Part shown: in pieces, positions 7,090 through 63,096 of the stretch | How positions within the stretch are numbered: position 1 is the first letter of the stretch | Layout: the number at the start of each line of letters is the position of its first letter | From: a virus | Virus record (IMG/VR): IMGVR_UViG_3300028948_000703 | Span: 32,001-96,000 of that record | Direction: 5' to 3' (one strand) | Length of the DNA stretch: 64,000 bases | Notes under the pieces: model-generated | Seen by the model: the letters and a program-made list of their open reading frames with translations, nothing else | What the model was told of the DNA's origin: nothing | Databases searched by the model: none | Translations under genes and position numbers: made by a program

Positions 7090-7253
7090 GATTCAGTTTA
7101 GTCGAATGCTCAGGTGGGTAAGCTCTGCAGAGCGAGGCCAACGTGCCGATAAACCTAGGGCTGTAGACTAATATGATAGGTCACCTGTCCAATATGCAGG
7201 AGATAAAGGTTTGATTCCTTTCAGCGGACTTGAGCTTTCGGCTAAACTGAATC
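7090..7253 (+). ncRNA. Unknown structured RNA with an embedded CCA-less tRNA-like cloverleaf (7160-7225)
   Basis: Long closing stem GATTCAGTTTAGTCGAA.GCTCAGGT / ACTTGAGC.TTCGGCTAAACTGAATC followed by a T-run. Inside: GCTG/CAGC, a D-arm, CCTGT-CCAATAT-GCAGG and AAAGG-TTTGATT-CCTTT. Own TTGACG/TAGTAT promoter. Confidence 0.6.
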
Positions 7254-7296
7254 TTTTTGTCATTGACAAATCCGCAGTCTGCGCTAAATTAGCAGT

Positions 7297-7551
7297 GTGA
7301 ACAAGGAGATCATGATGATCATCAGTGCAGAACAAGCTCAGGCTTACACCGGTCTCGAAGGTCAGCAGGCTTTTGTCGAGCTGGGATTTGACAGCATGGG
7401 CTATACTCGTACCATCACCGACGGTGCCACTGGAGCGACTGCGGTAGTTCTGTATAGCGGTCTTGGCCTGCCCATTGCATATTTTCGCACTACCGACGAG
7501 GCTATCGGGTCAGCGATGCAGAACAACATTGAGGTTTTTAACCTTCACTAA
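7297..7551 (+). CDS. Hypothetical protein
   Basis: TTGACA promoter and SD AAGGAG (true start probably ATG ~7312). Confidence 0.55.
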   Translation: MNKEIMMIISAEQAQAYTGLEGQQAFVELGFDSMGYTRTITDGATGATAVVLYSGLGLPIAYFRTTDEAIGSAMQNNIEVFNLH

Positions 7552-7607
7552 AATTGGTTGCACGAGCTCTAGATCGCTGTATAATGAGCTCAACAACGGA
7601 GCAGCGT

Positions 7608-8027
7608 ATGAAAACCGAAGAACAGTATATGGAAGAGTTCGACGAAGCTCACCGCAATTATGTTGCTGCTCGAGCTCGTGCAGGCTTTCCTTTTAATCCT
7701 CCTGACAAGAACAAGCCCTTGCCTAGCTGGGTTCTGCGGCATGGCGAACGACCCACGTTGACGTTTGTCACTCGGCCGTACTCGGGTGCTGTACCAGCTG
7801 CTAAGAGCGTGCAAAAGCCCGCTGTAGCGGTGGCTCCGGAGGTCGCTACAGTTGTTAAGCCCGAAGCTGGTCAGAGCTTTGCGTCGCAAGTACGTGCAGT
7901 TATTGCAGACGTTAAACCCAAGGGCTGGACACAAGAACAGGTTGTTGAGCACGCGGTTTCTGTGCTTAATATGAAGCGTACAAGTGCTATCAACTGCGTC
8001 CGACATAACTGGGACCGTGTTAAGTAA
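7608..8027 (+). CDS. Hypothetical protein, paralog of 23330-23749
   Basis: LPSWVLRHGE...VRAVI...NCVRHNWDRV is shared with the 23330 ORF. Confidence 0.7.
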   Translation: MKTEEQYMEEFDEAHRNYVAARARAGFPFNPPDKNKPLPSWVLRHGERPTLTFVTRPYSGAVPAAKSVQKPAVAVAPEVATVVKPEAGQSFASQVRAVIADVKPKGWTQEQVVEHAVSVLNMKRTSAINCVRHNWDRVK

Positions 8028-8038
8028 AGGATAAGGCT

Positions 8039-8251
8039 ATGTCTAATGTAGATTTTGAAGCTCTTAAGCAGCGTTGTGAAGCCGAAATGAACAGGCATGA
8101 CAGTGTTGGTCGTGAGAAGCGTATGCTGAACTACTCGGGCAAGGACTTTGCACCGGTTTTGGATCCCGAGTGGAATCGGCAGCATCGAGCTGCGCCCAAG
8201 CCCAGGTATACACTGAGCCCTGTTCAGCTGCGGCGTATGCGGAGCATCTAA
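8039..8251 (+). CDS. Hypothetical protein
   Basis: ORF track; SD-like AAGG upstream. Confidence 0.5.
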   Translation: MSNVDFEALKQRCEAEMNRHDSVGREKRMLNYSGKDFAPVLDPEWNRQHRAAPKPRYTLSPVQLRRMRSI

Positions 8252-8675
8252 CAATGCGTCGCTGGTACTGGCCCGTTTGCGCGCTTAATGTGGCATTCGC
8301 TGCACAGCCATTTCTTTTTGATGTACCTGCCACAGGTTTTCATGTATTCAATGCATGTGTGGCGCTGCTGATGATCTGGGCAGGTCCCGTCAAACAGGAA
8401 AGCTAACAGTGGCATACATCGACTTCTACGACATTGCAGGGTCCTTGGAAGCTGTCAAGGACATTGCTCACAGTGCAGCACCTGGTGCACTGGTGCGTGA
8501 AGATGGGTTTCAGCGTCAAGGTTATGGTGAAATTCATCGAGTCTATATCACCTCGCAGGATCAACGATCGGCTCTTGATCTTGTTGCTCACGACACGTTT
8601 CTTACAATCTAACAGTATTCGGTTGTGATGTTTCACGTTTGTGCTATAATCGGCACATAGCAAGGAGCTAGGCAG

Positions 8676-8891
8676 ATGTCACACTGGGAACATGGATACC
8701 ACGACGGGCTTAACAACAGGAATCCTGCAACGGCACGCTATCTGCATGATTCAATCCACGATCCGTATGACTTGAATGATTACTGTGCCGGCTACCGAAT
8801 GGGCATTCGGTGTCAGCCTGAAAAGGATCGCTGCATCGAAGGCGACCTGATTGGCAAGCCCGAGAACTTTGAAATTCGCAACTTCAACTAA
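8676..8891 (+). CDS. Hypothetical protein (ribosome modulation factor-like 'GY.DG...Y..GY..G' pattern)
   Basis: WEHGYHDG...DYCAGYRMG; own promoter and SD AAGGAG. Confidence 0.4.
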   Translation: MSHWEHGYHDGLNNRNPATARYLHDSIHDPYDLNDYCAGYRMGIRCQPEKDRCIEGDLIGKPENFEIRNFN

Positions 8892-8908
8892 CATCAAGGA
8901 GACTAATC

Positions 8909-9112
8909 ATGGCATTTGTTCGTTCCACAGCTAATCCGCAAGTTGGTGATATTCGCACGCTGAAGACTGATGTCGGTGCTGGACATGGCACCATTCTTCG
9001 TGGTAGCCGTGTGAAGATCATTGGACACAGCTATCGCGGCTGGGATATCGAAGACCTTGAGTCGGGTGAGCGGGTTTACGAGACCATTAGTTTCGATCTG
9101 TTCGAGCGTTGA
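8909..9112 (+). CDS. Hypothetical SH3-like small protein
   Basis: SD AAGGAG; 'VGDIRTLKTDV...GSRVKIIG'. Confidence 0.55.
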   Translation: MAFVRSTANPQVGDIRTLKTDVGAGHGTILRGSRVKIIGHSYRGWDIEDLESGERVYETISFDLFER

Positions 9113-9131
9113 TAGACAACGGAGCAGGGCA

Positions 9132-9344
9132 ATGGCTGGGCAGTTCCTTTACCTGAATATGACGTACGAAACACAAGCGGGAACGCACGTCAAGATGGTG
9201 AAAATTCACAATGCTGGGACTAGCTACGAAACGCTTGAGGACGAGCATGGTGTAAATCGCTATTCTCGCAGAGCTGAAGACATAGGTCGTTGCACCGGGT
9301 CTGCACACGATTACAGCGACCCGCGCAATATCAAACGATCCTAA
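9132..9344 (+). CDS. Hypothetical protein
   Basis: CAACGGAGCA RBS motif upstream of ATG 9132. Confidence 0.55.
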   Translation: MAGQFLYLNMTYETQAGTHVKMVKIHNAGTSYETLEDEHGVNRYSRRAEDIGRCTGSAHDYSDPRNIKRS

Positions 9345-9402
9345 AAACCACTAGACACGCTACCAATAGTCTTCTAGTATAGGATCAACAACGGAGCATA
9401 TT

Positions 9403-9690
9403 GTGTTCGACGATCTAGAGGATTATGAATCCAACGGTATCACCCTAAAGTTGGGCTGCGGTGCTTGTCCTGAGCAATATGAAGCCTATAACGAGAGTGG
9501 CGACCATGTGGGTTATCTTCGCTTGCGACATGGACGTTTCACTGTGGAATGTCCAGACGTTGGTTATGACCTTGTGCTGGAAGGGCGGCCCGAGGGCGAC
9601 GGACATTTCATGTATGAAGAACGCACACAGTGGCTGGAAAAGGCTGTGACTGCAATCAAAGAATGGATGGTGGCGCATGGAAAAGCGTAA
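9403..9690 (+). CDS. Conserved phage hypothetical protein (CGACPEQYE...GYLRLRHG family)
   Basis: Recognisable phage motif; GTG start with a CAACGGAGCA RBS. Confidence 0.65.
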   Translation: MFDDLEDYESNGITLKLGCGACPEQYEAYNESGDHVGYLRLRHGRFTVECPDVGYDLVLEGRPEGDGHFMYEERTQWLEKAVTAIKEWMVAHGKA

Positions 9691-10009
9691 GATCTACGAC
9701 GTCAGCACCAATACCGATCTCACTGAAGGCCGCGGCAGTGAGTATGTCAAGCATACCTGTGTGTTGCTTTCTACAGCTATACGACTTGCGCACCGAGGCT
9801 ATGTGCAGGGCAGCGACTGTCCTATTACCGCACGCGAAGTAGACTACGATCCCAAAACTGATATGTACTACGGTAAGATTGAAGTCAATCGTGGTACACC
9901 TGCAGATGTAAAGCAGGAAGAAAAGAGAGATCGGTTGCAATCAGTTCTAGAGCGTGCTAAACAGCTCGGACTAAGCGACGAAGACATCAAGATCATTCAG
10001 GAAAAATAA
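9677..10009 (+). CDS. Conserved phage hypothetical protein (NTDLTEGRG family)
   Basis: 'NTDLTEGRG', 'VQGSDCPI' and 'AKQLGLSDEDI'. Confidence 0.65.
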   Translation: MEKRKIYDVSTNTDLTEGRGSEYVKHTCVLLSTAIRLAHRGYVQGSDCPITAREVDYDPKTDMYYGKIEVNRGTPADVKQEEKRDRLQSVLERAKQLGLSDEDIKIIQEK

Positions 10010-10010
10010 C

Positions 10011-10214
10011 ATGCCTACGATTTATCGTGTTATTGCACGTGACGATAACAAGGTGCAACAGTTTCGCACTGCCTATGACGTTAGCATCTTCCTCTTGGGT
10101 CGTCGCATCACTGCGTACTTGATCATCAAGAGCGACAATCAGGGCGATCGCCTTATTGCGTGGCCCAGTGATCCCAATATTGAAATCATCGAAACGCATC
10201 TTGAATCCAGCTAG
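10011..10214 (+). CDS. Hypothetical protein
   Basis: ORF track; SD AGGA. Confidence 0.5.
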   Translation: MPTIYRVIARDDNKVQQFRTAYDVSIFLLGRRITAYLIIKSDNQGDRLIAWPSDPNIEIIETHLESS

Positions 10215-10943
10215 CTATTTTCGACCTCTTCTCCATCCATTTATAATATATTGATCTACCAAGTTTTTATTAATCATTCTTACTTGACCATCTTTAATAA
10301 CGCACACGCTGCCTTTTTTAGATTTGCTCATTTTGAGCTTTGATTCGTCGGTATGACATGTTATATGTTTAAAAAATATACGACCCATAACCCATCCGGC
10401 TTCTAAAAAGGGCTCTACCTTACTAGGATCAATATGCTTTGTTTTTTTCTCTGCAACATTTGATATCCAAATAAGACCTTTGCGTGTCTGTGACATTTTA
10501 TCCTTAACGTGATCAGACATTTTCTTACCAACATTTGCTAACCTTACTTTTTCTATAACAGAGCTTGGTTTTTTAACACCTTTTAATGCATTACTTATTT
10601 TTTGCTTATGTTCTTGTGTTTTTGGTGCATTAATGTTAAAAACTCCTTTGATATTTCCGTTTATCCAGTCAGATCTATTCATTACATCTAGTTTACGTAG
10701 GACATTCGCTTCCCATGACAATGCTTCGTTAGCAGTATGAAATGTTCGTCTCACTTCGACGTCAAAACTATCTTTACCATATTCTTTGATTAATTCGTGT
10801 ACTTTTTTGCTTGATGTAAAGTATGTAACCCAAAATGTCGCAGGATTGGCAATGTTTCGTTTGTGTTTTGCTACTTTAACGCCATAATACCGTAGACCAG
10901 TTGGTCGATGTATAATATAGTAAGTGTAAGGAATGTAATTCAT
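10215..10943 (-). CDS. Free-standing GIY-YIG (Seg-like) homing endonuclease with NUMOD3-type repeats
   Basis: 'YTYYIIHRPTGLRYYGVK', 'YFTSSK', 'KTQEHKQKISNALKG' and 'HTDESKLKMSKSKKG'; AT-rich and on the opposite strand to its neighbours. Confidence 0.8.
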   Translation of the reverse strand: MNYIPYTYYIIHRPTGLRYYGVKVAKHKRNIANPATFWVTYFTSSKKVHELIKEYGKDSFDVEVRRTFHTANEALSWEANVLRKLDVMNRSDWINGNIKGVFNINAPKTQEHKQKISNALKGVKKPSSVIEKVRLANVGKKMSDHVKDKMSQTRKGLIWISNVAEKKTKHIDPSKVEPFLEAGWVMGRIFFKHITCHTDESKLKMSKSKKGSVCVIKDGQVRMINKNLVDQYIINGWRRGRK

Positions 10944-11318
10944 ATGAAACCTCTTTATCATGCCCAAGCGTCCGCACGTAGATATGGTGGAACGGTAGAG
11001 TGTTATTTACCTTTGCACAATTTCTTTGACAGTTCCAAACAGTGTTTGGCGGATGTTAGGCATCGTGCTATTCTGCACTCCAGCTTTGGTATCTTTCTGC
11101 TAGAACGAGTCTTTGGAGAGTATATCACAAATTCAGCAGGTCGTCGAGTTTGTGTACGTGATATTGGCGAAGAGCATGTCATTGAGGATCTGGGCACCAT
11201 TCCCACTGTGGAAAAATGGCTGCGTAATCTGCCCATTGAAGACTGGATGACCAGCGCACGCCATAACAAGATCATCAAGACTACGCATATCAGTTTCGAT
11301 GATGTCAAGGTTGATTAA
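10944..11318 (+). CDS. Conserved hypothetical protein (DUF6915-like, H..SS.RR.GG...RHRA..HS.FG)
   Basis: MKPLYHAQASARRYGG...RHRAILHSSFG...IGEEHVIEDLG.IPT. Confidence 0.7.
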   Translation: MKPLYHAQASARRYGGTVECYLPLHNFFDSSKQCLADVRHRAILHSSFGIFLLERVFGEYITNSAGRRVCVRDIGEEHVIEDLGTIPTVEKWLRNLPIEDWMTSARHNKIIKTTHISFDDVKVD

Positions 11319-11333
11319 CAAGGAGCAAAATTA

Positions 11334-11756
11334 ATGACGAATACCCGCAATCTACTTTCTCTAGTTCAGGAATATGACGCCAAGGTCAAGGCCATGCGTG
11401 AAGAGCTCAGCAACGAGTTCAAGACGCAGTTCAAGACCATTAGCACGGAGATTTTCTCCAAGTATCCTGAAATCCTCAAGTTTGGTTGGACTCAGTACAC
11501 GCCCTACTTCAATGACGGTGATGCCTGCGTTTTCCACTACAATGATATGTATGTCTGCACGGATCCTGAATCTGCAGACGGCAGCGTCTATGACTGGGAA
11601 GACATGTATAGCCTCAAGAATAAGTACCCTGAGCTTGCAGAGTTTGAAAAGGTTCTGAGCTCCAGCGAGGACATCCTGCTTGCTATGTTCGGTGATCATG
11701 TTCAGGTCACTGTGACGCCGGCTGGAATTGATGTTGACGAGTACGAACACGACTAG
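11334..11756 (+). CDS. Conserved phage protein (WTQYTPYFNDGD.C family)
   Basis: Motif recognised; SD AAGGAG. Confidence 0.7.
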   Translation: MTNTRNLLSLVQEYDAKVKAMREELSNEFKTQFKTISTEIFSKYPEILKFGWTQYTPYFNDGDACVFHYNDMYVCTDPESADGSVYDWEDMYSLKNKYPELAEFEKVLSSSEDILLAMFGDHVQVTVTPAGIDVDEYEHD

Positions 11757-11880
11757 TATATTGCAGGTACAGCGGAGGTTGCGTTTACTACCAATTAACG
11801 AAAACACGCTGTCAAGCCGTTAGGGACCGCGGGGAAGTAGCTGAAAAGGCCTTCCAGAGTGTCCCACTTTTTTAGGTGCA

Positions 11881-12234
11881 ATGATGATACTGGCTTGTTG
11901 TCCATTCTGCGCTGCTGAACCCCCAAATACCATTGTAATCAACGAAGTTAGACGCTTTTATAGGGTCTACTGCAATGGTTGTGGCAGTGCTGGTCCATTT
12001 GGTGACACCGAAGAGCAGGCCAGTGAGCTGTGGAATTTGTCCAGTAAACAGCGCTCTCAAGCATTCGCCGAAGCAGCCAAGATAGTTCGCAGTGAGATTA
12101 CCAGAGTTCAAGATCTCTGTAAGTTCCCAGAATCCACAGATGTAGCCACAGAGCGTCTTAGATTTGCAGTTTTGGGTCGCGTTGATGGCCTTGTTATGCT
12201 AGAACGAGCTATGCTAGATAAGGTCGTAAAATAG
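11881..12234 (+). CDS. Lar-family restriction-alleviation-like zinc-ribbon protein
   Basis: 'CPFC...VYCNGCG..GP......A...WN'. Confidence 0.65.
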   Translation: MMILACCPFCAAEPPNTIVINEVRRFYRVYCNGCGSAGPFGDTEEQASELWNLSSKQRSQAFAEAAKIVRSEITRVQDLCKFPESTDVATERLRFAVLGRVDGLVMLERAMLDKVVK

Positions 12235-12284
12235 GTTCAAAATGATTGACTTATTCTTGGACACGAAGTAACAATCAAGTTACA

Positions 12285-12788
12285 CTGTTGATAGCCTTGC
12301 TCGGGCGATTGAGAGAGCAGCTCACCATTGGAATAAGAATGGGATGCATTTGGGCAGCAGCAAGTCTGATATGCACTAACCTACTGACGGTAGGATGAGC
12401 AGGCACGTCCTCTGCATATCTGGATAACAAGTCAAATAGGCTTGTCGAAGCACGTATAAACCGCAAATGGTACTTGAGATATGGAGGCGGTAATCTCACA
12501 TCAATGACATCGCATGGTAGTGTTACATCTGAAGCTATACGACGAGATGAGCAGACTTTAGCATAATCGGGAGGAAATCATGACAGCCCCGTTCCTGTGT
12601 GACGCACAGGTTGCGAATAGCAGATGAGGCAATTAAAGGACTCGACGAACGCAAACTTTAATTTACACGATTGACTGGACACAGTCGTCGTGTGACTTTG
12701 GATCTGACGAATGCAATAGAGTTGGTGAAGCAAAGTGAACCGTTAGGTGAAACGGCTGAAATCAACAGATGAACGTGAGGTTCATCTC
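12285..12788 (+). ncRNA. Large structured ncRNA, ROOL-like
   Basis: ~500 nt with no credible ORF, after a TTGACT promoter. 5' CTGTTGAT-AGCC pairs with 3' GGCT-GAA-ATCAACAG. Many internal hairpins. The 3' 'GACGAAT..TAGAGTTG..GCAAAGTG..GGCTGAAATC' segment resembles ROOL as I recall it. Confidence 0.5.
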
Positions 12789-12826
12789 ATTTGACTGCAA
12801 ATGAATAGTTTTGGTATAATATCTAG

Positions 12827-13351
12827 ATGTTTACCATCATAAAACCCAAAACTTACTCTGACTCTCGTGGTTGGTTTAGAGAGACATATCAATGCCAACA
12901 TATGGAATCACTGGGCATATATAGCAGTTTTGTCCAAGAGAATCAATCCTTATCATATCAAGCAGGCACTGTGAGAGGTCTGCATTATCAAGCACCACCA
13001 TATGCACAGTCCAAGCTAATATCTGTGCTAGCCGGCAGTATCTATGATGTAATCATTGACATACGCCGGAATTCTGCTACATATGGGCATTGGACTGCAT
13101 ATACGCTAACTGTAGAGTCAGGTGAACAGCTTTACGTTCCCAGCGGATTTGCACATGGCTTTTGCACGCTGGAACCCAACACACGCATACAATACAAGGT
13201 AGACCATGTATATCATCCTGCCAGTGAGGGTGGTATTTCATGGTGTGATCGTGACTTGAACATCCCGTGGCCAGTATCTATGGCTCAAGCAATAGTGTCA
13301 GATCGAGACGCTGCGTTGCCGACGTGGAACAACTTTATAAGCCCATTTTAG
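12827..13351 (+). CDS. rfbC: dTDP-4-dehydrorhamnose 3,5-epimerase
   Basis: 'DSRGWFRE', 'GTVRGLHYQ' and 'GFAHGFCTL'. Confidence 0.95.
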   Translation: MFTIIKPKTYSDSRGWFRETYQCQHMESLGIYSSFVQENQSLSYQAGTVRGLHYQAPPYAQSKLISVLAGSIYDVIIDIRRNSATYGHWTAYTLTVESGEQLYVPSGFAHGFCTLEPNTRIQYKVDHVYHPASEGGISWCDRDLNIPWPVSMAQAIVSDRDAALPTWNNFISPF

Positions 13352-13359
13352 GTCTGTCA

Positions 13360-14250
13360 ATGCTTTTGATATTTGGTAAAACAGGACAACTAGCGCAATC
13401 ACTGGCCGGCCTCGCTCAATCGAGCAACATTCCAGTAACTGCAACTGCACGAGATACAGTGGACATCACCGACAAATCCAGCATAGAGTCTGTGATCAAG
13501 ACCGTTCGTCCTAGATTAGTCGTCAATGCCGCGGCTTATACAGCAGTAGATCTTGCAGAGACTGAGCGAGACCAAGCCGAACAAGCAAATACTCTAGCTC
13601 CGGGTCTCGTAGCAGAAGTCTGTGCAAATTCCAAGGTACCCATGATACATATATCAACTGACTATGTGTTTGATGGCTGCAAACTCAAACCTTACATAGA
13701 AAGTGATCAATTGTCCCCTGTGTCAGTCTATGGCCAGACAAAAGCAGCCGGCGAGGCACGTGTACGAGATGCTCTTGAGCAGCATGTGATCCTTAGAACC
13801 AGCTGGGTTTACAGCAGATTCGGACGAAACTTTGTTAAAACTATGATCAATCTTGCTGCAACGCAACCTGAAATATCAGTTGTTGCAGATCAAACAGGCT
13901 GTCCCACAGCAGCTGACGACGTATCATCCGCTATAATCACTGTATATCAAGCTATGCAGCAAGGCATCACAGCCTGGGGAACATATCACTTTGCTGGCAC
14001 AGGCATCACCACATGGTATGATTTTGCAGTGAGAGTCATTGACGCTCAATCTGCTATAACAGGACATTGTCCTCAGATGCGACCTATCTCTTCCAGAGAA
14101 TATCCCACTGCGGCACAGCGACCACAGAACTCAGCATTGAGCAGTGATTTGTTTGCACGGAAATTTGGCTATCGTGCTAGGCCATGGCATCTTGCAGTTA
14201 AACAAACAGTTGATCAGCTATTAAAAGGAAAACACAGTGACATCACTTAG
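13360..14250 (+). CDS. rfbD: dTDP-4-dehydrorhamnose reductase
   Basis: 'GKTGQL', 'NAAAYTAVD.AE', 'STDYVFDG' and 'YGQTK..GE'. Confidence 0.95.
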   Translation: MLLIFGKTGQLAQSLAGLAQSSNIPVTATARDTVDITDKSSIESVIKTVRPRLVVNAAAYTAVDLAETERDQAEQANTLAPGLVAEVCANSKVPMIHISTDYVFDGCKLKPYIESDQLSPVSVYGQTKAAGEARVRDALEQHVILRTSWVYSRFGRNFVKTMINLAATQPEISVVADQTGCPTAADDVSSAIITVYQAMQQGITAWGTYHFAGTGITTWYDFAVRVIDAQSAITGHCPQMRPISSREYPTAAQRPQNSALSSDLFARKFGYRARPWHLAVKQTVDQLLKGKHSDIT

Positions 14251-14947
14251 CGTCACCTGCATTGAAACTAGACATTATCAACGCTCTGCTGAAGCTGTTC
14301 AACGCACTATAAGCTGTTTACCTGCGGGTAGTGTAGACTGTGTTTATTGGTTTAGCAATGCAGATTTTCCAGTGTCATTGCCTGGCATTGAGATTATACG
14401 CATAGACACACCATGTTTTACTCACTTCATCGACGATATCAATAGACTTTGTTTACGTATAATTCCACGTGTTGTCACCACAGATCACACAATAGTTGTT
14501 CAAGGTGATGGATTTGCCGTGAATGGCGATGCATGGGATCCCTCATTCCTTGAGTATGATTACATAGGTGCGTGTTGGCCTTGTATGTGGGACGGACCAC
14601 ATTCCATAGTAGGCAATGGAGGATTTAGTCTACGAAGTCAGCGTTTGTTAAAAGCTCTTAGAGAAATCAATGCTCGCTGGCAACTCAGTGACTGGGAAGG
14701 TGATCCTCGATTGGATCAGCGTGATCATTATGTGTTGAATCCTGACAAGAGTCTACCAGAAGATATTCTCGTTTGCCAGTGGTATAGACCGCAGCTCGAA
14801 GCTGACTATGGTATTAAATTCTGCCCAGTTGAGCTAGCAAACAAGTTCAGCGTTGAAAGCATTCATCCAGTTACAGAATCTTGGCTAGGCAAAAGCTTTG
14901 GATTTCATGGTGTTACTGCTGCACCTTATTATGGTGTTAGCTTATAG
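14237..14947 (+). CDS. DUF5672-like putative glycosyltransferase
   Basis: 'VQGDGF', 'YDYIGACW', 'VGNGGFSLRS', 'PEDI' and 'FGFH'. Confidence 0.75.
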   Translation: MTSLSVTCIETRHYQRSAEAVQRTISCLPAGSVDCVYWFSNADFPVSLPGIEIIRIDTPCFTHFIDDINRLCLRIIPRVVTTDHTIVVQGDGFAVNGDAWDPSFLEYDYIGACWPCMWDGPHSIVGNGGFSLRSQRLLKALREINARWQLSDWEGDPRLDQRDHYVLNPDKSLPEDILVCQWYRPQLEADYGIKFCPVELANKFSVESIHPVTESWLGKSFGFHGVTAAPYYGVSL

Positions 14948-15223
14948 CTACCAAACGAACTCACTATATAGCTCTCCAAGCTGTTCTGCAAGCTCAATGT
15001 GTTCTTGTATCAGCTGACCGCTTGAGCGAGCAATAGTTAATGCTTCTGCTCGGCTGACAAACTCATCACGGTCTGTAATAAATCCTTCTTCGCCATAGGA
15101 AATCCTGCATAAGCTATAACCCATGCTCAGCAACAGCCAGATTACATTGTGATGACGAGAGGGAGGAAGAATCCAATGGACTTCTCCATCTCGTGTTTTG
15201 ATTGCAGCAGCTTTAATCTGCAC
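14948..15223 (-). CDS. Conserved phage hypothetical protein (RHH...GF.T....FVSR.EA...LYSE)
   Basis: Motif recognised. Confidence 0.65.
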   Translation of the reverse strand: MQIKAAAIKTRDGEVHWILPPSRHHNVIWLLLSMGYSLCRISYGEEGFITDRDEFVSRAEALTIARSSGQLIQEHIELAEQLGELYSEFVW

Positions 15224-15405
15224 TAGCGCAGAGTCCAGTCCATGATAATAGCCACGGCTTTTGCACTCATTGCCAGAAAGAAAAACCAGTAGGCAATCCT
15301 CTCAGCAGCTACTGGTTTTTCCCAACCTCTTGCAATAAAGTAAAAAGCGGCTGCAAACGATGTTAGATAGCCGATGATGTATGTAATTGCTTCAAGAGAA
15401 GTCAT
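15223..15405 (-). CDS. Small membrane protein
   Basis: Two hydrophobic segments; preceded by the TGCGGGGACCA motif. Confidence 0.55.
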   Translation of the reverse strand: MTSLEAITYIIGYLTSFAAAFYFIARGWEKPVAAERIAYWFFFLAMSAKAVAIIMDWTLR

Positions 15406-15419
15406 CGTGGTCCCCGCAG

Positions 15420-15668
15420 CTATTTGTTGAGCATCTTGGCCAGCAACTTGCTATCAAGCTCGGGCTCGCTCTTGAGCTTAAGGCTGATGCTTTCACCGTG
15501 AGCAACTACAGATCCGTCATCTTCGACGCGAACAAAGCCTGCACGCTCCGGCTTCCACTGCCCGATAATCAGGGCCATGCTGCCATGCTGCACGTGATTA
15601 GGGAAGATAACAGGCACATAGTTGAGCCCAGTATCAAAGATGATGTATTTGGCATCTGTGCTAAACAT
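15420..15668 (-). CDS. Conserved phage hypothetical protein (P.IFP..V.H...AGF...GES.SL)
   Basis: Motif recognised. Confidence 0.65.
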   Translation of the reverse strand: MFSTDAKYIIFDTGLNYVPVIFPNHVQHGSMALIIGQWKPERAGFVRVEDDGSVVAHGESISLKLKSEPELDSKLLAKMLNK

Positions 15669-15701
15669 TTGGTCCCCGCAGCATATTACTCAAATACTAT
15701 A

Positions 15702-15881
15702 CTACTTGAGTACTTGGATTTCAACCACTGTATAAGACCAGTTTGCTTCGTCTGGTTGACGTGGCATTGCGTTAATTTCCTCAACCCAAGACTCAGCACG
15801 CTCCTGAGTTTCATATGCAAGGATAGCTCCGTCCTTAACAGAGCCACGCCAGCGTTCAATTACAAATACAGTCTTATACAT
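15702..15881 (-). CDS. Hypothetical protein
   Basis: MYKTVFVIERWRG...; ATG directly after the repeat motif. Confidence 0.55.
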   Translation of the reverse strand: MYKTVFVIERWRGSVKDGAILAYETQERAESWVEEINAMPRQPDEANWSYTVVEIQVLK

Positions 15882-15891
15882 GGTCCCCGCA

Positions 15892-16272
15892 CTAGTCTTC
15901 GTATTCCGCACGCTTCCGTTGAAGTTCGGCAATCTGCTGGTCGATCTTCTCTCGTTGACGTGCACGCGCTTCCACACGCGCCCGCTCAGCATCCTTTGCC
16001 ACATCATTGATGTTCTTGACGTTGATCTTAACGATAGACCCACCGCCGCCCCACTGCCAGAACCCTGGCATAATTACAGCAGTAGCGAGAATGTCTTTGA
16101 GTTTGCCAGCATACACGCCAAGATTGGGCTGATGATGATGCCCACCGAGATCACAGTTGGGATCTTCACCACGGACCTGCCACAGCCCTTCCTCATCAAG
16201 CTGATGCTTTTCCATAAGGGACTTGTATGCGTAGGTACCGCGATACTTGGCAAGTGCTTCCTGAGAATTCAT
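15892..16272 (-). CDS. Conserved phage protein (GEDPNCDLGG.HH.P.LG family)
   Basis: Motif recognised; SD AAGGAG. Confidence 0.7.
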   Translation of the reverse strand: MNSQEALAKYRGTYAYKSLMEKHQLDEEGLWQVRGEDPNCDLGGHHHQPNLGVYAGKLKDILATAVIMPGFWQWGGGGSIVKINVKNINDVAKDAERARVEARARQREKIDQQIAELQRKRAEYED

Positions 16273-16298
16273 GTTGTTTCTCCTTGTGTTACCGGATA

Positions 16299-16496
16299 TT
16301 AGACATAATCCAAGTGGGTTGCAAGCTGTTTCTTGAGAGTGTCAATTCGTCCTGTCAACTCCTGAAACATCTTGGAGTATTTTTCGCGAGTGTAGTAACC
16401 ACTCTGCGAGGTAAGATAGGAGTAATCCTGGTTCAGCTCACGCAGCTCTCGCAGCAGCGACATTGCGTAAGTCATAGAATGGTCCATGAGAATCAA
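16299..16496 (-). CDS. Hypothetical coiled-coil protein
   Basis: Coupled ORF in the - strand operon. Confidence 0.5.
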   Translation of the reverse strand: MILMDHSMTYAMSLLRELRELNQDYSYLTSQSGYYTREKYSKMFQELTGRIDTLKKQLATHLDYV

Positions 16497-16699
16497 TCCT
16501 TGTATAGATAGCTTGCAGCCAACTCCAGTGCGGTGATACGGCTAATACGCATGTATTGTAGCTTCTTTAGATGCTCAAGTCGAGCACGTTTTTCCTTGGG
16601 CTTTTCCTTCATTGCCTCGCGAATGGCTTCTGCATTCTCTCTGGCAACGTTGAGATGCAGACGCGCACGGCGACGAAACTCAACTCGATCTTCCAGCAT
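16493..16699 (-). CDS. Hypothetical basic protein
   Basis: Coupled ORF. Confidence 0.55.
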   Translation of the reverse strand: MLEDRVEFRRRARLHLNVARENAEAIREAMKEKPKEKRARLEHLKKLQYMRISRITALELAASYLYKD

Positions 16700-16702
16700 T
16701 GT

Positions 16703-16945
16703 TTACCCCTTGATATACTTGTCAACGTCCAGCAAGGCCTTGATCACACCTGCATGATCATTCTGACGCATGGGTTTTGACACATGCTCTACCAGCATGT
16801 CAAGCATTGCGGCATCACGCTGCCGCTTTGCCTCGCTGCGCTGATTTTTGCGCTGACGAATTTCAGCCTGGCGTGCGAGCTCAGCTTTGCGCGGATCAGG
16901 AAAACCCTGCGCCTTGAGTTCAGCAATGGTGGGATACTTAGCCAT
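16703..16945 (-). CDS. Hypothetical protein
   Basis: SD GAGG; downstream of a TTGACT/TATAAT promoter at ~17055-17083. Confidence 0.55.
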   Translation of the reverse strand: MAKYPTIAELKAQGFPDPRKAELARQAEIRQRKNQRSEAKRQRDAAMLDMLVEHVSKPMRQNDHAGVIKALLDVDKYIKG

Positions 16946-17149
16946 TTGCGCCTCACAGTTTGGTAAACCCGGTGGGTGCTGCCCCCACTATCCACCGCTT
17001 AAAAGGCGGTTGCTTTTGCTGCTAAGCTACGGGTTCTTTAACAACGTTCCGCTATTATACAGACTTGCCATCTAGAGTCAATTGATAGTTTATGGTTGCA
17101 TGTTATCGGTAATATGTTATGATAGCTAAAGCAACGCAAGGAGCACGTA

Positions 17150-17344
17150 ATGAGCACCAATTCTCCACTGATGGTCGATCCTCCCGAAGGATGGCGATAT
17201 GGCTTTCCCAAGGCCTACTTTAAGAACCGTGTGGGTTCCGATCGTGAACTGCGCTCGTGGCTTCTGCACTATGGCTACCCTGCCAAAATGATCGATAGCC
17301 TTGGTCCTAAGATGCGAGGCATTCGTTTCATCGGCGGTGAATAA
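17150..17344 (+). CDS. Conserved phage protein (DPP.GWRYGFPK family)
   Basis: Motif recognised; SD AAGGAG. Confidence 0.7.
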   Translation: MSTNSPLMVDPPEGWRYGFPKAYFKNRVGSDRELRSWLLHYGYPAKMIDSLGPKMRGIRFIGGE

Positions 17345-17403
17345 TACGTTGACTCTTAGATAGTGTTGATATATGATAATCAGACATTAACTAGGAGTGT
17401 GAC

Positions 17404-17805
17404 ATGACTGTAGACTTCAAAGCTAAGATTGAAGAGTTTGTCAAGGCTAATCGCAAGGTTTGGCCCGAGTGGCCCAAAGCGGTAAAGCCAAAGCGTCGTA
17501 ACCCCAGGCATCGTCACAGAGATCAGGTTTACTGGGTGTACGATAATACGTTTAGCTATGACCAAAAACTCACAACCTGGTTGTTATACGACAACGAAGT
17601 GCTTGAGATTGATGGCATTGAGAATATGGGTGTGGTAGATGGTCCGGAAGGCGAAGAGGGTCTCTGGGAGTGCTGGGATTCACATTATCAGCTAGCTAAC
17701 AAGCCCGGCAAAGGTGTAAGACTGCGTGAAGTAACGGCCAAGGAAGCACGTCGCCTTTGGCTGGGTCGGCTTTGCAGCGACGATAATGATGATGAATTTA
17801 GTTGA
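17404..17805 (+). CDS. Hypothetical protein
   Basis: Own TTGACT promoter, SD AGGAG. Confidence 0.6.
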   Translation: MTVDFKAKIEEFVKANRKVWPEWPKAVKPKRRNPRHRHRDQVYWVYDNTFSYDQKLTTWLLYDNEVLEIDGIENMGVVDGPEGEEGLWECWDSHYQLANKPGKGVRLREVTAKEARRLWLGRLCSDDNDDEFS

Positions 17806-17854
17806 CGGGCTATTACCAATAGCGTATAAAGCTCAGCACACAAGGAGCTAGACA

Positions 17855-18733
17855 ATGTTTGCAGATTTCCTTTTGGTACCCGGCGATCGAGTGGTCATAA
17901 AGATGGACCCGGAGGCCCGTGCATGGCGTGGCGGACTGCCCGATGGCACCCAGGGAACTGTGGTTGGCAAGGTGAGGTATCGTCGCTATGCCACTCGTTA
18001 CGGCATCGACACCTACAGCTTTGCTCAGCCTGGCATCTACGAGCTGGACGGTGTGCCGCGGGTCAAGTGGGACACTGGTAAGATTGACACTGTGAGCACC
18101 TACGATATCGAAGCAGTCGACACCAAAAAGTTCGAGCAGCGTGTGGAAACCCAGTATCGCTCTGCTGTTCGTGCAGGAGAAGATGGCAAAGAGATCGAAC
18201 ACCGGTTCCGCAATATGGTGAGGCTTGGTGATCTGCCCGATGCCAAGTTCTACGAGCTGGATCGTGTTCGTGTGTCGTGCTTTAACGATACGGGCACTGT
18301 CAAAGAGGTGATGTATACCTGGGCGCTGAACGAGCAGACCGGACAGTGCAACGATGAACGTGGCATGTGCTATCGCGTCGATCTGGACCGCGGTGGATCT
18401 ACTCACGTGCATGATACTGAGCTTGAGCTGAAAATGCGTGGAAACATGTATAATCATCTCCATGGGCTTCCTCTAGAGTTTGTTGACATCCGCGAGGAGA
18501 TCAGCTGGGCCAAAGGTCTGACGCAGATCAAGGAAGTTCGCAATCCTGCTAATCAGCTTTACAGCTGGACCAAAGAATCTGCTCTGGCTGCGGTGGAGTC
18601 TGGGCTGGGAGACTGCATTACTGCTGGTAACGGACTGTTTGGTAGTGGCCTGCATGTTTCCGTGTGGAAGTGCAACGACAGCGATCTTGGACGGCGTGCG
18701 CGGCTGGCAACTATGCGTGGTTTTGGCCTTTAA
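17855..18733 (+). CDS. Hypothetical protein with two SH3/KOW-like beta domains
   Basis: 'PGDRVVI...GTQGTVVG' and 'LDRVRV...GTVKEV'; own promoter and SD. Confidence 0.6.
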   Translation: MFADFLLVPGDRVVIKMDPEARAWRGGLPDGTQGTVVGKVRYRRYATRYGIDTYSFAQPGIYELDGVPRVKWDTGKIDTVSTYDIEAVDTKKFEQRVETQYRSAVRAGEDGKEIEHRFRNMVRLGDLPDAKFYELDRVRVSCFNDTGTVKEVMYTWALNEQTGQCNDERGMCYRVDLDRGGSTHVHDTELELKMRGNMYNHLHGLPLEFVDIREEISWAKGLTQIKEVRNPANQLYSWTKESALAAVESGLGDCITAGNGLFGSGLHVSVWKCNDSDLGRRARLATMRGFGL

Positions 18734-18792
18734 TTGGTTGAACAACCAGATCAGCTAGTGTATAAGCTAGCAGAACGAATTAGGAGCCAACA

Positions 18793-19116
18793 ATGAGCTT
18801 GGATGTTTATCTGAATGCGGTGCGTCCGACTACGGTCTACACTCGGAACATCACGCACAACATGGGCCGGATGGCTGATGCCGCGGGTATCTATCAGCAT
18901 ATCTGGCGGCCCGAAGAGCTGAACATCAAGACTGCTGGCGAGCTGATCGAACCCCTGACAGCGGGTCTGGCTCGCCTCAAGGCTGATCCTGCGCACTTCA
19001 GCCAGTTCAATCCTGCCAACGGCTGGGGTAACTATGAAAATCTGGTCGAATTCGTTGACGAGTATCTGGATGCGTGCATTGCTAATCCGGATGCAACAAT
19101 TGAAGCCTGTCGTTAA
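18793..19116 (+). CDS. Conserved phage protein (MSLDV.L...NITHN...NP.NGWG.YE family)
   Basis: Motif recognised; SD AGGAG. Confidence 0.75.
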   Translation: MSLDVYLNAVRPTTVYTRNITHNMGRMADAAGIYQHIWRPEELNIKTAGELIEPLTAGLARLKADPAHFSQFNPANGWGNYENLVEFVDEYLDACIANPDATIEACR

Positions 19117-20611: not shown

Positions 20612-20660
20612 CCCAAACAATCTAGACGCTATACTACCAGCGTTAACAACGGAGCGCACA

Positions 20661-20912: not shown

Positions 20913-20916
20913 GCTG

Positions 20917-22143: not shown

Positions 22144-22208
22144 TGTAATGCATTATATGCAATATAAAATCGGTTGCATAATTGGATAAACACTTTATAA
22201 TCGAACAC

Positions 22209-25488: not shown

Positions 25489-25493
25489 CATCA

Positions 25494-52944: not shown

Positions 52945-53025
52945 AACATCAAACCTTATTATGGTCCTATAATAGCATTATATGATTACAACGTCAATGC
53001 TAAAATTTAGGTGCAAATTATTAAG

Positions 53026-53057
53026 AAAAATAAAGCCTGCTGTAATGCAGGCTTTAT
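53026..53057 (-). terminator. Intrinsic terminator
   Basis: ATAAAGCCTGC-TGTAAT-GCAGGCTTTAT with an A-run on + (U-run on -). Confidence 0.8.
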
Positions 53058-53059
53058 CT

Positions 53060-53301
53060 TTATCGCAGGTTGACTTTATATCAACTTATGGGACTTTTGT
53101 TAACAGTTGCTTCGGAATTCTATCCCTGTCGTATCATGGCCTCTATCTTCGACAGTTAGTTAACATGGTCTCTTTAGAAGTTGGTCGGTATATCTCCGCT
53201 CACATTGGCCAAATTGTTTGTCCTCATTCACCCTTTATAGAGTCTAACATATTGTTGCTCTACACCCTCACATCATCGTGTAACACACGCCTCTGCGATA
53301 A
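53060..53301 (-). ncRNA. Unknown ~240-nt structured RNA
   Basis: TTATCGCAG/CTGCGATAA closing stem; TATAAATA at 53305-53312 just upstream; terminator just downstream; internal stems (GTTGA/TCAAC, TGTTAAC repeats, CTGTCG/CGACAG, TAGAG/CTCTA). Confidence 0.55.
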
Positions 53302-53356
53302 CTATATTTATATATAATGATTGATAAAGTCAAAGATAGAATTGTAAGCTGCGTAT

Positions 53357-61529: not shown

Positions 61530-61604
61530 TGTTTCTCCATATTTGTAAGAAATTTACATTAAATTATAATTGATTTTTTACAAAAATCAAATGGATACCA
61601 AAAA

Positions 61605-61877
61605 GGTAGGCGAATAGTTGCCTATCCGCCTTTCTGTTTCCAGGTTCCCTTTAAAACCCATTGAGGCTTACGCTGCTAGGCGAACTTCCTCAAATGCAAT
61701 GTTATCATTGACATTTATTTGTTTTGAACAGATTGACGGTCGTATCTTACCGAATATCTCAATCAATTTTTACACACACGTCGATCCTAGTTTACCCACA
61801 TAAAAAAATGTGGTGTAGGTAACGGGTACTGCCCCCGTGTCCGCATTGCTTATTATATTAATCTACAAACGATATTA
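61605..61877 (-). ncRNA. ssrA: Permuted (two-piece) tmRNA, tag (A)VNDNIAFEEVRLAA
   Basis: The acceptor piece ends GAC-ACGGG-GGCAGTA-CCCGT-TACCTAC-A-CCA (61811), followed by an 11-nt spacer. The coding piece starts GTGGGTA-AACTAGGATCGAC (61799), giving G3.U70. Tag ORF is 61712-61668. Confidence 0.92.
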
Positions 61878-61887
61878 ATTATATTTA

Positions 61888-62517
61888 TTATGTTGTAATA
61901 GAAGAAGTCAAATTTTTTCTAAACTCAGTTGAAATAAAATCTAAATCAGATTTATAGTATAATTTTCTATCTTTTGGATTATATCCTTCATCTAAATTTG
62001 TTAGATATCCACCATATATTTGTAAACCAAATATATCTATTAGTTTTGCTTCTAACGACAATGCTTCACATTCGGTTAAATTATCTTTAATAATAAAAGA
62101 TATAGGTTCTTTATCTAATTCATTTATCCATTGTCGAATTTTTCGATGTGTTTCGTTCCTAGCCAGATTTGAAAATCTATCACCTAAGCCTTTACCAACA
62201 TAAAAAGGAAAATGTGTCATTCCTAATGTAGCAGAAAATGTAGTTAACCAATTAAACCCCACCGCTATTTTTTTCAAAGGATTCATATGGACATAAACAT
62301 AGTATTGTCGTGTTTGGTCTAATTTTAAATTGTTATATAAACTTGAAATGTCTGTATTATACACATTCATACATGACTCAAATTTACGCCTATTCATCTC
62401 TTTCTTAGAAATTTTATTTGGATTAATTTGTCCTAACCTAGATTTTATTTGAGTTCCTAATTTTGATACTTGTTTATAGTCATCCCAATCAATTGTAAAT
62501 GTTTTAATATTTGTCAT
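61888..62517 (-). CDS. GIY-YIG (LEM-3-like) endonuclease; frame stays open upstream through the tRNA-like 5' strand
   Basis: 'YYVYVHMNP...PFYVGKG.GDR', 'EAL.LEA.LI..FG' and 'LTN'. Confidence 0.8.
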   Translation of the reverse strand: MTNIKTFTIDWDDYKQVSKLGTQIKSRLGQINPNKISKKEMNRRKFESCMNVYNTDISSLYNNLKLDQTRQYYVYVHMNPLKKIAVGFNWLTTFSATLGMTHFPFYVGKGLGDRFSNLARNETHRKIRQWINELDKEPISFIIKDNLTECEALSLEAKLIDIFGLQIYGGYLTNLDEGYNPKDRKLYYKSDLDFISTEFRKNLTSSITT

Positions 62518-62526
62518 TGTAATGTA

Positions 62527-62695
62527 TCGATCCCATTTCGCCCCCATCATAGACACATTAAGTAAACAGCCGCAAAGGTTAGCTACTCCTCTGGTCCGGG
62601 ATACCCTCCCGGTGCTTAACGTGTCTATGGTGGAGGCGTCGGGAGTTGAACCCGAGTCTTGTTCACCTATATATTGCTATCAACGACAGCTACGT
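62527..62695 (-). ncRNA. Second permuted tmRNA-type tRNA-like domain with no recognisable tag region
   Basis: GAC-TCGGG-TTCAACT-CCCGA-CGCCTCC-A-CCA (ends 62628); 82-nt stem-closed intervening segment; GGGGGCG-AAATGGGATCGA (starts 62545) with G3.U70. Confidence 0.85.
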
Positions 62696-62696
62696 T

Positions 62697-62987
62697 ATTT
62701 ATAGCACAAAACTTATAAAAAGCAAGAGATTATAAAAATTAGCGATCACAGGGTTATGAGAATATATTATACAGATAACCTTAATCTTACATCATACGCA
62801 CACGGCCAAGGGTAACTATCCAGCCTGCTTAACTACTGGATCATGCCTTGTTAGGTATAAAGCAGGAAATCCCGTAATAAACCATGTACGTATGATGTAC
62901 GATGTAAGATTGAGGAGTTAACCTTACATCATTTCTATCTATATAACTACTATAGTTATAACACAACAATTATAAAAAGCAAGAGAT
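62697..62987 (-). promoter_or_regulatory. Two copies of a sigma70-like promoter (TTGCTT-N16-TATAA) driving ncRNAs; 18-bp direct repeat at 62713 and 62970
   Basis: ttataaaaagcaagagat occurs twice on the + strand. Confidence 0.65.
62768..62945 (-). ncRNA. Unknown rod-shaped RNA with a pseudoknotted core
   Basis: CCTCAATCTTACATC/GATGTAAGATTAAGG and CATACGTACATGG/CCGTGTGCGTATG stems. In the core, CCTGCTT can pair with AAGCAGG in the loop of ATCCAG/CTGGAT. Confidence 0.55.
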
Positions 62988-62990
62988 CAT

Positions 62991-63096
62991 AAAAAACATT
63001 TGGCGTCTGCATTTCCTTGGTTATCTTACTTGCAACTCCGGACCCCATAGTATTATCTAACTTGTCCTTTGTATCCGAGAAGACCAAATGTTTTTT
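62991..63096 (-). ncRNA. Candidate ~105-nt structured RNA
   Basis: AAAAAACATTTGG/CCAAATGTTTTTT closing stem with two internal stems; strand inferred from context. Confidence 0.35.

Follow-up and report, generated by a model that had tools for sequence, protein, structure and literature searches.

Stable RNA genes of the window

The window analysed here is a stretch of 64,000 nucleotides (nt), taken from a viral record of 116,272 bases (IMG/VR record IMGVR_UViG_3300028948_000703), in which it spans 32001-96000. The completeness of the record was estimated by CheckV at 28%, so the source phage would be roughly 400 kb in size. Among cultured phages, Sinorhizobium phage Phosso (469 kb) and Agrobacterium phage Atu_ph07 (490 kb) come nearest to it. 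The window carries a GOLLD RNA with a tRNA-like insert, a two-piece transfer-messenger RNA (tmRNA), a second tRNA-like domain of the permuted-tmRNA type (TLD2), a tRNA-Lys(UUU) and several folded RNAs without family assignment (orphan RNAs), together with genes of translation and RNA repair. The original prediction for this DNA counted about ten structured RNAs and joined them into a single counter-defence or translation-control system built on tRNA mimicry. That the window is rich in RNA genes proved real, but two of the ten elements found no support.

At the gathering thresholds of Rfam, seven matches were obtained in the window, and a search at E ≤ 1 brought nothing credible besides. Folding was expressed as z-scores measured against shuffled sequence, with 200 shuffles for the elements at 7090 and 35721. 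The background was taken from 378 segments of 160 nt in the first 15 kb (20 shuffles each), which gave a mean of −0.42, a standard deviation of 1.31, a 5th percentile of −2.9 and a 1st percentile of −4.9. Since 5% of the background segments reach z −2.9, values between −2 and −2.6 are no outliers, and those near −2 were given no weight. For the orphan RNAs, assignments were made solely from folding statistics, the promoters and terminators around them, and the internal logic of tRNA contacts; motifs and loops at tRNA positions were compared by eye from printed alignments.

A GOLLD RNA with a lysine-type insert

The GOLLD RNA occupies 37249-38155 on the minus strand as a unit of 907 nt (z −3.33 for the whole unit). 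Its conserved 3' domain at 37251-37726(-) scores 196.8 bits (cut-off 150, E 5.3e-54) with RF02032 over model positions 1-416 of 416, which bears out the GOLLD-like giant proposed earlier. A terminator (37221-37240) stands just past the 3' end, and a promoter motif (38185-38195) lies ahead of 38155. The linker houses a tRNA-Lys(UUU)-like insert at 37591-37658(-), with 46.6 bits in the Rfam tRNA family. The D, anticodon and T arms of the insert are present (T loop UUCGAUU), about 4 of 7 acceptor pairs can be read by eye, position 32 is an A, and there is no CCA. Because of its mismatched acceptor stem, A32 and lack of CCA, the insert is unlikely to be set free as a working tRNA.

Matches to GOLLD were obtained in 4 of 13 related records (1 of 5 and 3 of 8), two of them above the cut-off: G006 with 188.3 bits, Phosso with 186.6, G002 just below the cut-off with 148.1, and G009 weakly with 30.9. 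The Phosso match lies at PV764938.1 33533-34001. In two of these linkers, ARAGORN (-ps90) likewise calls a tRNA-like element where the insert sits here: the one in G006 is Asp-like, lacks U33 and has two mismatches in its acceptor stem, and the one in G002 is Met CAU with a non-TTC T loop; no such element was called at this setting in the linker of the Phosso GOLLD. The GOLLD region also aligns with Phaeobacter phage MD18 and DSS3_MAL1, where a tRNA-Arg is annotated, and GOLLD linkers have been described as sometimes housing phage tRNAs (10.1101/2024.12.08.627333). With G006 and G002 placing a tRNA-like insert at this point of the linker as well, the insert is a regular but variable module of GOLLD and not specific to this window.

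Two-piece tmRNA and its upstream domain

The two-piece (permuted) tmRNA at 61623-61910(-) is of the alphaproteobacterial type and was recognised by RF01849 (alpha_tmRNA, 136 bits against a threshold of 50) as well as RF04321 (tmRNA_permuted, 112 bits against 47), in agreement with the tmRNA named in the original prediction. Its parts follow in the order acceptor piece, 11-nt spacer and coding piece. The acceptor stem GUGGGUA/UACCUAC-ACCA contains G3.U70, the alanine identity pair, the T loop is GGCAGUA, and the tag reads VNDNIAFEEVRLAA before the stop, with an end of the degradation type (ARAGORN tmRNAp, -ps95). Such an RNA would free stalled ribosomes either with the SmpB of the host or with one encoded in the missing 72% of the genome. 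A permuted tmRNA was found in 4 of 11 relatives (E ≤ 0.001), and tags were read by ARAGORN in G006, G009 and G004. The permuted tmRNA of Phosso scores 113 bits and has a spacer about 410 nt long; it lies within PV764938.1 349488-350238, a gap of 750 nt in which no feature is annotated. A tandem tmRNA in G004 was considered and rejected, as the two RF04321 hits there are parts of a single one-piece tmRNA.

TLD2 lies at 62527-62658(-) and reaches 51.1 bits with tmRNA_permuted, the match spanning only model positions 33-105 of 213. It begins with a T arm whose loop UUCAACU is canonical and continues through CGCCUCC-ACCA, an 82-nt stem-closed spacer, GGGGGCG and AAAUGGGAUCGA to an end in ..GGGAUCGA. 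CGCCUCC pairs with GGGGGCG in a perfect 7-bp acceptor stem with G3.U70. There is no P2 helix, pseudoknot or short tag frame in TLD2 (the P2 pairs were flagged as non-standard), and ARAGORN (-ps95) calls no second tmRNA. Past GGGAUCGA, TLD2 runs into a GIY-YIG-like open reading frame (ORF) at 61888-62556 of 209-222 amino acids (aa), and directly after this ORF the complete alpha-type tmRNA starts. In its layout TLD2 corresponds to the 5' part of two other tmRNA genes, those of G006 and G009, which read ...CTCCACCA, stem-closed spacer, ATGAT-GGGGNNG...GGGATCGA (in RNA, ...CUCCACCA, stem-closed spacer, AUGAU-GGGGNNG...GGGAUCGAC) and continue with P2, the pseudoknots and the tag; the similarity stops exactly where their P2 and pseudoknots start. 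We infer that TLD2 is the truncated head of a second tmRNA gene, which would have been cut off by a mobile GIY-YIG-type endonuclease gene. The GIY-YIG-like ORF may now use the promoter and leader of TLD2. A tmRNA gene head joined in this way to an endonuclease-like ORF may show mobile nuclease genes remodelling stable-RNA genes.

A tRNA-Lys(UUU) with a non-standard elbow

The original prediction had held that the window contains no canonical CCA-ending tRNA. This is contradicted by a tRNA-Lys(UUU) with ACCA at 16961-17036(-), for which the Rfam tRNA match (16964-17036, model positions 1-71) gives 48.5 bits. The RNA has a 7-bp acceptor stem, the D stem GCUU/AAGC, the anticodon loop CUUUUAA with U33, and the 3' end ...CGGGUUU-A-CCA. 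Its promoter TTGACT-16-TATAAT (17081-17054) ends 17 nt upstream and is the best sigma-70-like site of the 14.5-kb stretch scanned. The elbow is non-standard, with T loop GGCAGCA and D loop AGCAGCAA without GG, and for this reason ARAGORN misses the gene at its default, -ps95 and -ps90 settings. The T loop is one base off that of the phage's own tmRNA (GGCAGUA) and fits the Rfam alpha_tmRNA consensus GGCgGUA. Both tRNA-shaped elements that have a normal U33 anticodon loop carry UUU (Lys). The anticodon arms are ACCGC-CUUUUAA-GCGGU in the free tRNA-Lys and ACUGC-AUUUUAA-GCAGU in the GOLLD insert, so that one compensatory pair and position 32 differ.

The Lys(UUU) isoacceptor is described as the target of PrrC (PMC10264068) and of PARIS AriB (PMC11464382). 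The accounts of these systems also report that tRNA-Lys cut by PrrC is repaired by T4 ligase (PMC10264068) and that a tRNA-Lys variant of T5 neutralises PARIS (PMC11464382). From these T4 (PrrC) and T5 (PARIS) paradigms, it may be supposed that the free tRNA-Lys(UUU), aided by the ligase and kinase, would sustain lysine decoding when anticodon nucleases of the host cut the host tRNA-Lys.

Orphan RNAs

The first orphan RNA, at 7090-7258(+), is a stem-closed RNA of 169 nt (z −4.57; 0 of 200 shuffles fold as well). Ahead of it, at 7056-7083, stands the promoter-like sequence TTGACG-16-TAGTAT, which has a TG upstream, and a U run comes after the RNA. Its two ends pair in a closing stem of 25 bp (17+8), inside which two small hairpins and a tRNA-like cloverleaf are found. 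The 5' strand of the stem carries GUCGAAUG at RNA positions 12-19, which fits the motif GNCGAAN0-1G, with a chance of about 1% in that strand; the motif has been linked to Ro60 binding by Chen et al. (PMC4201824). The cloverleaf at 7160-7225(+) matches the Rfam tRNA family with 38.3 bits over model positions 4-67 only. It keeps U8, A14, A21, U54 and A58, and has a compensatory A19-U56 in place of G19-C56 of tRNA. The arms follow in the order D, anticodon, T, and the ends leave at the acceptor side. Genes for TROVE/Ro60 were found in 5 of 11 relatives, including Phosso and Atu_ph07. The RNA may serve as a Y-RNA-like scaffold of Yrn1-type topology, whose likely partner would be a Ro60 like those of these five relatives.

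The orphan RNA at 62767-62947(-), about 180 nt long, is strongly folded (z −6.82 for 62745-62950). The block that holds its promoter (62947-62995) and the one upstream of TLD2 form a 49-nt direct repeat with 86% identity. The motif CTCTTGCWTTT occurs in only three copies in the 116 kb, all on the minus strand (38185-38195, 62718-62728 and 62975-62985), and each precedes an ORF-free RNA unit, namely GOLLD, TLD2 and the 62767 RNA. It may represent a promoter class dedicated to stable RNAs. No Rfam family matches the 62767 RNA, and no homologue was found in the 11 relatives. A further orphan RNA, a unit of about 265 nt at 53029-53333(-), gives z −3.96 including its own terminator hairpin. Its promoter TTGACT..TATAAATA lies at 53305-53333, and the pattern TTGACT-N-TAWAAATA has its sole match in the window there, with 0.01 expected by chance. 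The genes for RNA ligase and kinase lie directly downstream. Rfam gives only sub-threshold terminator-like hits on this RNA, and the opposite-strand ORF across it (52982-53317) has no PHROG match. The units at 53029-53333 and 62767-62947 would be real small RNAs of unassigned role. From folding and context, it is plausible that 7090-7258, 53029-53333 and 62767-62947 are orphan RNAs.

A weaker candidate is the element with a tRNA elbow at 20917-21183(+), core 20937-21100. Its z of −2.55 is no outlier against the background. The acceptor stem comprises 6 bp and a G1/A72 mismatch, the D arm contains GG, and the loop of the T arm is UUCGAGA. CCA is missing, and about 113 nt of helices take the place of the anticodon loop. 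An unconstrained fold recovers the acceptor, the D arm and the extended anticodon stem, and the T arm can also form an alternative cloverleaf at 21021-21101 (ARAGORN tRNA-???). On the small locus there is no Rfam tRNA match at E ≤ 10, and another search gave 17 bits (E 0.05). A contig of the diverged wastewater strain seen in DNA run X2 covers 20644-21961 with 74 differences (5.6%) and no gaps. A group I intron is unlikely here, as the 113-nt insert is too short and no intron family was matched; known group I introns measure about 200 nt or longer. That 20937-21100 is a tRNA-derived RNA is also plausible, more weakly than for the other orphan RNAs. Of the tRNA-like modules proposed originally, the 7160 cloverleaf, the GOLLD insert and TLD2 were thus recognised by Rfam, and the one at 20938 stayed weak. 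The predicted RNAs at 53060 and 62768 likewise stood, and the one at 35721 did not. Altogether, the window offers three or four orphan RNAs bounded by promoters, which are candidates, not discoveries; one is Y-RNA-like, and the lineage commonly carries Ro60 genes.

Two further stretches did not qualify. The 'ROOL-like' stretch at 12285-12788 gives z −1.96, and neither ROOL (RF03087) at E ≤ 1 in the window nor any Rfam family at E ≤ 10 on the gap was matched. It sits in a 590-nt non-coding gap (12235-12826) upstream of rmlC, delimited by the ORF at 12827-13351 and a promoter at 12791-12820. The 'RNase-P-like' stretch at 35721-35942(-) gives z +1.04, since 178 of its 200 shuffles fold equally well or better, and there is no Rfam match at E ≤ 10 in 35352-36022; it is adjoined in the same gap by a hydrophobic ORF of 50 aa at 35563-35715(+). 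We take both stretches to be ordinary intergenic DNA. Outside the listed elements, 160-nt segments with z −4.8 to −6.1 (20 shuffles) were noticed at 2161-3120, 4881-5120 and 9281-9440 on the plus strand. The G+C-richer left part may hold further structured RNAs or leaders.

Homologues and transcripts

Homologues of the orphan RNAs were sought in several ways. Searching 6500-13500 against the phage collection by blastn gave nothing. When 14 candidate stretches were compared with loci L002-L011 and L012-L017, the only hits were 16-21 nt long, as expected by chance. Single-sequence covariance models of the Y-like RNA (R1), the tRNA with insert (R2) and the 62767 RNA (R3), whose E-values are rough, found no homologue in the 11 relatives or the own record. 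R1 and R2 matched only ordinary tRNAs (those of R2 being 71-80 nt long), and R3 matched nothing outside the own record. A match of R1 in Phosso at 461162-461267 was rejected as a homologue of the 7090 RNA, being an annotated tRNA-Thr with complementary flanks. A two-anchor pattern scan of metagenome contigs for the 7090 RNA found no homologue either; its single hit, L053, is coding-like, has no R1 match and no similarity to the genome, and was treated as chance. RmlD as query found no relatives in viral contigs, and none of the RNAs lies near the genes in the loci found through alanine dehydrogenase and RNA ligase.

The closest relatives encountered are a contig of 157,703 bp, which carries a protein 93% identical to that of ORF 17855-18733, and the X2 strain; a further relative on another contig is 76% identical. 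In the X2 strain, 25301-27079 shows 15 differences in 1779 nt, and its other pieces differ by 5.6-12.6%. This region spans a part with small ORFs and most of a 1.1-kb gene-free boundary where the G+C content drops; its low divergence would reflect either strong conservation or recent exchange.

In two small metatranscriptome runs, RNA contigs on 7080-27079 cover 25494-25630, with a 36-nt piece at 11487-11522 whose ends are both loose. The contigs at 25494-25630 are 100% identical in both runs and lie inside a Cys- and Arg/Lys-rich ORF of 50 aa at 25495-25647(+), MKAYGHSRKDKLECRYGCC..., which marks a small mRNA; one of them folds back on itself at 25557-25586. No RNA contig covers 7090-7258, 12285-12788, 16961-17036 or 20917-21183, which is uninformative either way for runs of 70-120 million letters searched as contigs only. 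In the RNA runs X8, X9 and X15, the fraction of sampled words found from 35300-45000 was 0.10, 0.09 and 0.05. Although 0.09-0.10 of these 9.7 kb comes to about the length of GOLLD, this is no evidence for GOLLD expression.

Source phage and neighbouring genes

The topoisomerase IV-A-like protein of the window is 56.5% identical to that of Phosso and 54.5% to that of Atu_ph07, and the IF3-ClpX-topoisomerase neighbourhood is common to both phages. The annotation of Phosso also includes Smr and polynucleotide-kinase genes. A nucleotidyl-transferase gene is present in both phages and is labelled as tRNA nucleotidyltransferase in Atu_ph07 only. In composition the window falls into two halves: from 1 to about 27,000 the G+C content is 42-50% and the genes are short, and in the remainder it is 31-40%. 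The left-half ORF 17855-18733 has relatives in the large phage records G006 and G009, which themselves carry the right-half features tmRNA and GOLLD, and the two halves were for this reason taken as one phage lineage. Alternative genetic codes were tried for the gene-poor left half; any recoding raises the open-frame cover, and none stands out.

The proteins confirmed by Pfam are YqeY, a TilS-type PP-loop protein, RNA ligase (PF09414), an AAA_33 kinase, Smr, IF3, S21, ClpX, ClpS and Hsp20. The translation and RNA-repair context described originally, with RNA repair, TilS and YqeY occurring together, is hereby confirmed. Unrelated genes (OmpA, alanine dehydrogenase, arginase, topoisomerase) stand among the RNA elements. 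In the ClpX homologue at 42061-44379(-), of 772 aa, a LAGLIDADG domain sits between the zinc finger and the AAA module, so that this gene probably contains an intein. The left half also holds, at 12827-14947 and 21181-22143, an RmlC-like ORF (read from its sequence), RmlD, DUF5672 and a group-1 glycosyltransferase. These sugar-nucleotide and glycosyl-transfer genes suggest modification of the host surface or of DNA.

Interpretation of the RNA genes

We consider it probable, at roughly 0.68, that the window holds independent stable-RNA genes, as is typical of large jumbo phages like Atu_ph07 and Phosso, and that these genes belong to the known translation-maintenance and RNA-repair repertoire of such phages. 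The RNA elements are spread over 56 kb and over both compositional halves, and use at least three promoter types. Moreover, the modules assort differently among the relatives: GOLLD, the permuted tmRNA and TROVE occur in the 4 of 13, 4 of 11 and 5 of 11 relatives given above, and Phosso has a tRNA island with at least 23 annotated tRNAs within 6 kb. In the comparison across jumbo phages that the original prediction called for, GOLLD, tmRNA, TROVE and the tRNA island recur independently of one another. That few ordinary tRNAs lie in the window is what a 28% fragment would show. Jumbo phages are described as combining tRNA provisioning with RNA ligases and kinases and, in a subset, with TROVE and a tRNA-like partner, and this combination has been read as a counter to host attacks on translation (PMC7824862; Iyer et al., 2021).

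Several observations weigh against this reading. The rare motif CTCTTGCWTTT common to three RNA units argues for some co-regulation. No SmpB, RtcB or TROVE/Ro60 gene was found in the 116-kb record, which is 28% complete, so that the 7090 RNA lacks the Ro60/TROVE gene within about 4 kb on the same strand that would be expected of a Y RNA. The YrlA covariance model (RF02553) gives no match at this RNA at E ≤ 10, and around the TROVE genes of the five relatives no Y-like RNA turned up within 1.5 kb. As no homologue of any orphan RNA was detected, none has support from covariation, and the proposed covariance-model check, made for the RNAs at 7090, 20937 and 62767, gave no homologue in the 11 relatives. 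The unusual T and D loops of the tRNA-Lys leave its chargeability predicted only. In the X2 strain, a contig joint skips 16973-17040, the 66-nt body of the tRNA-Lys gene, which may be replaced or absent there. Finally, the best Pfam match of ORF 61888-62556 is GIY-YIG with 17.5 bits against a threshold of 27, its PHROG matches are weak, and no relatives of it were found in viral contigs; the homing-endonuclease account of TLD2 is for these reasons inferred.

The reading from which the analysis started would make one system of all these parts: the tRNA-shaped RNAs (7160, 20937, the GOLLD insert and TLD2), together with GOLLD, tmRNA and the repair enzymes, would act in counter-defence or translation control by tRNA mimicry, as decoys for tRNA-targeting nucleases or tRNA-binding factors. 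It could account for four tRNA-shaped elements that are unable to decode as written, for the elbow contacts kept in the Y-like RNA (A19-U56) and in the insert-bearing RNAs, for two Lys(UUU) anticodon arms in a window that also holds RNA ligase and kinase genes next to them, and for the promoter motif common to GOLLD, TLD2 and the 62767 RNA. However, we regard it as improbable. The elements are dispersed among unrelated genes under differing promoters, and the modules are met separately in relatives. TLD2 is likely accounted for by truncation of a tmRNA gene, and the GOLLD inserts of relatives bear other anticodons (Met CAU in G002, Asp-like in G006, tRNA-Arg in MD18). There is no evidence of conservation for any mimic, and a chargeable-looking tRNA-Lys is present, which that reading denied. 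Some of the same features could instead point to decay. On this account, most of the non-canonical elements would have no function and be either remnants in decay or folds due to chance. The GOLLD insert, TLD2 and the 20937 element would be what is left of broken genes for tRNA or tmRNA, and the orphan RNAs would be structured intergenic DNA or the leaders and terminators of neighbours. The missing homologues and covariation of the orphan RNAs agree with it, as do the structure-rich left half, where 5% of the background segments fall below z −2.9, the mismatched acceptor stem of the GOLLD insert and its lack of CCA, the lack of tag and pseudoknots in TLD2, and the X2 strain that skips the body of the tRNA-Lys. 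On the other hand, z-scores of −4.6, −4.0 and −6.8 were obtained for whole ORF-free units bounded by promoters and terminators, which ranks these units at or close to the extreme tail (1st to 5th percentile) of the local background, and two orphan units have dedicated promoters, one of a type common with GOLLD. The elbow contacts are kept, including the compensatory A19-U56, TLD2 retains its perfect 7-bp acceptor stem, G3.U70 and canonical T loop, and 20644-21961 is gap-free in a strain that differs by 5.6%. Decay therefore appears doubtful as a general explanation, if somewhat less so than the single system, and independent stable-RNA genes of the jumbo-phage repertoire remain the reading that we prefer.

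A bolder idea concerns the function of GOLLD. The RNA-only 14-mer GOLLD nanocage is known only from cryo-electron microscopy of env-38 (10.1101/2024.12.08.627333). Here, a GOLLD cage might display the non-chargeable tRNA-Lys(UUU) arms as a decoy or sponge for PrrC or PARIS AriB, while the free tRNA-Lys with its tmRNA-type T loop, the RNA ligase and kinase and the Y-RNA-like Ro60 scaffold would keep and repair the tRNA pool. With assembly as in env-38, each cage would present fourteen copies of the anticodon arm. We rate this as a very long shot, below the alternatives above. If it were true, decoy display would be the first function for GOLLD, and the Lys(UUU)-type look-alike in GOLLD, beside a free tRNA-Lys with a near-identical anticodon arm, offers a testable idea on what GOLLD does.

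Relation to known systems

The GOLLD RNA of the window agrees with RF02032 in the full match of its 3' domain, in being phage-encoded, in its length of about 900 nt, and in the lower conservation of its 5' region. As in some of the GOLLDs described (10.1101/2024.12.08.627333), a tRNA-like element lies in the linker, and the RNA has its own promoter and terminator. It differs in the Lys(UUU)-type insert with mismatched acceptor stem, A32 and no CCA, and in its carrier lineage, an Atu_ph07/Phosso-like jumbo phage. The tmRNA resembles the two-piece tmRNAs of alphaproteobacteria and jumbo phages in the order of its pieces, G3.U70, the T loop GGCRGUA and a tag ending in LAA, and permuted tmRNAs are likewise present in Phosso, G006 and G009. 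Unlike these, it has a tag-less second domain with a canonical T loop 620 nt upstream, fused to a GIY-YIG-like ORF, and no SmpB gene was found alongside it in the 116 kb.

The tRNA-Lys can be compared with the T5 and T4 cases (PMC11464382; PMC10264068), as far as these are described there, in being a lone, promoter-driven phage tRNA-Lys(UUU) that departs from standard tRNAs. The T4 repair pathway (PMC10264068) has its counterpart in the RNA ligase and polynucleotide-kinase-like genes of the same window. In contrast to T5 and T4, it is the T and D loops that depart, whereas its anticodon loop is standard. The 7090 RNA shares with the Y RNAs characterised by Chen et al. (PMC4201824) a long stem formed by the ends, with the motif in its 5' strand, and an internal tRNA-like domain with elbow contacts. 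Its arm order fits Yrn1 of D. radiodurans as described there and not YrlA, in which the order is permuted to T, acceptor-like stem-loop, D (PMC4201824).

With the jumbo-phage repertoire compiled by Iyer et al. (PMC7824862), the window has in common the same kinds of parts, namely tRNAs, ATP-grasp RNA ligases and kinases. The difference is one of coverage: that work catalogues proteins and tRNA counts, and its passages on this repertoire are without GOLLD, tmRNA and orphan RNAs. The recognisable parts of the window add an uncultured freshwater or wastewater relative of Atu_ph07 and Phosso to the known picture of the jumbo-phage kit.

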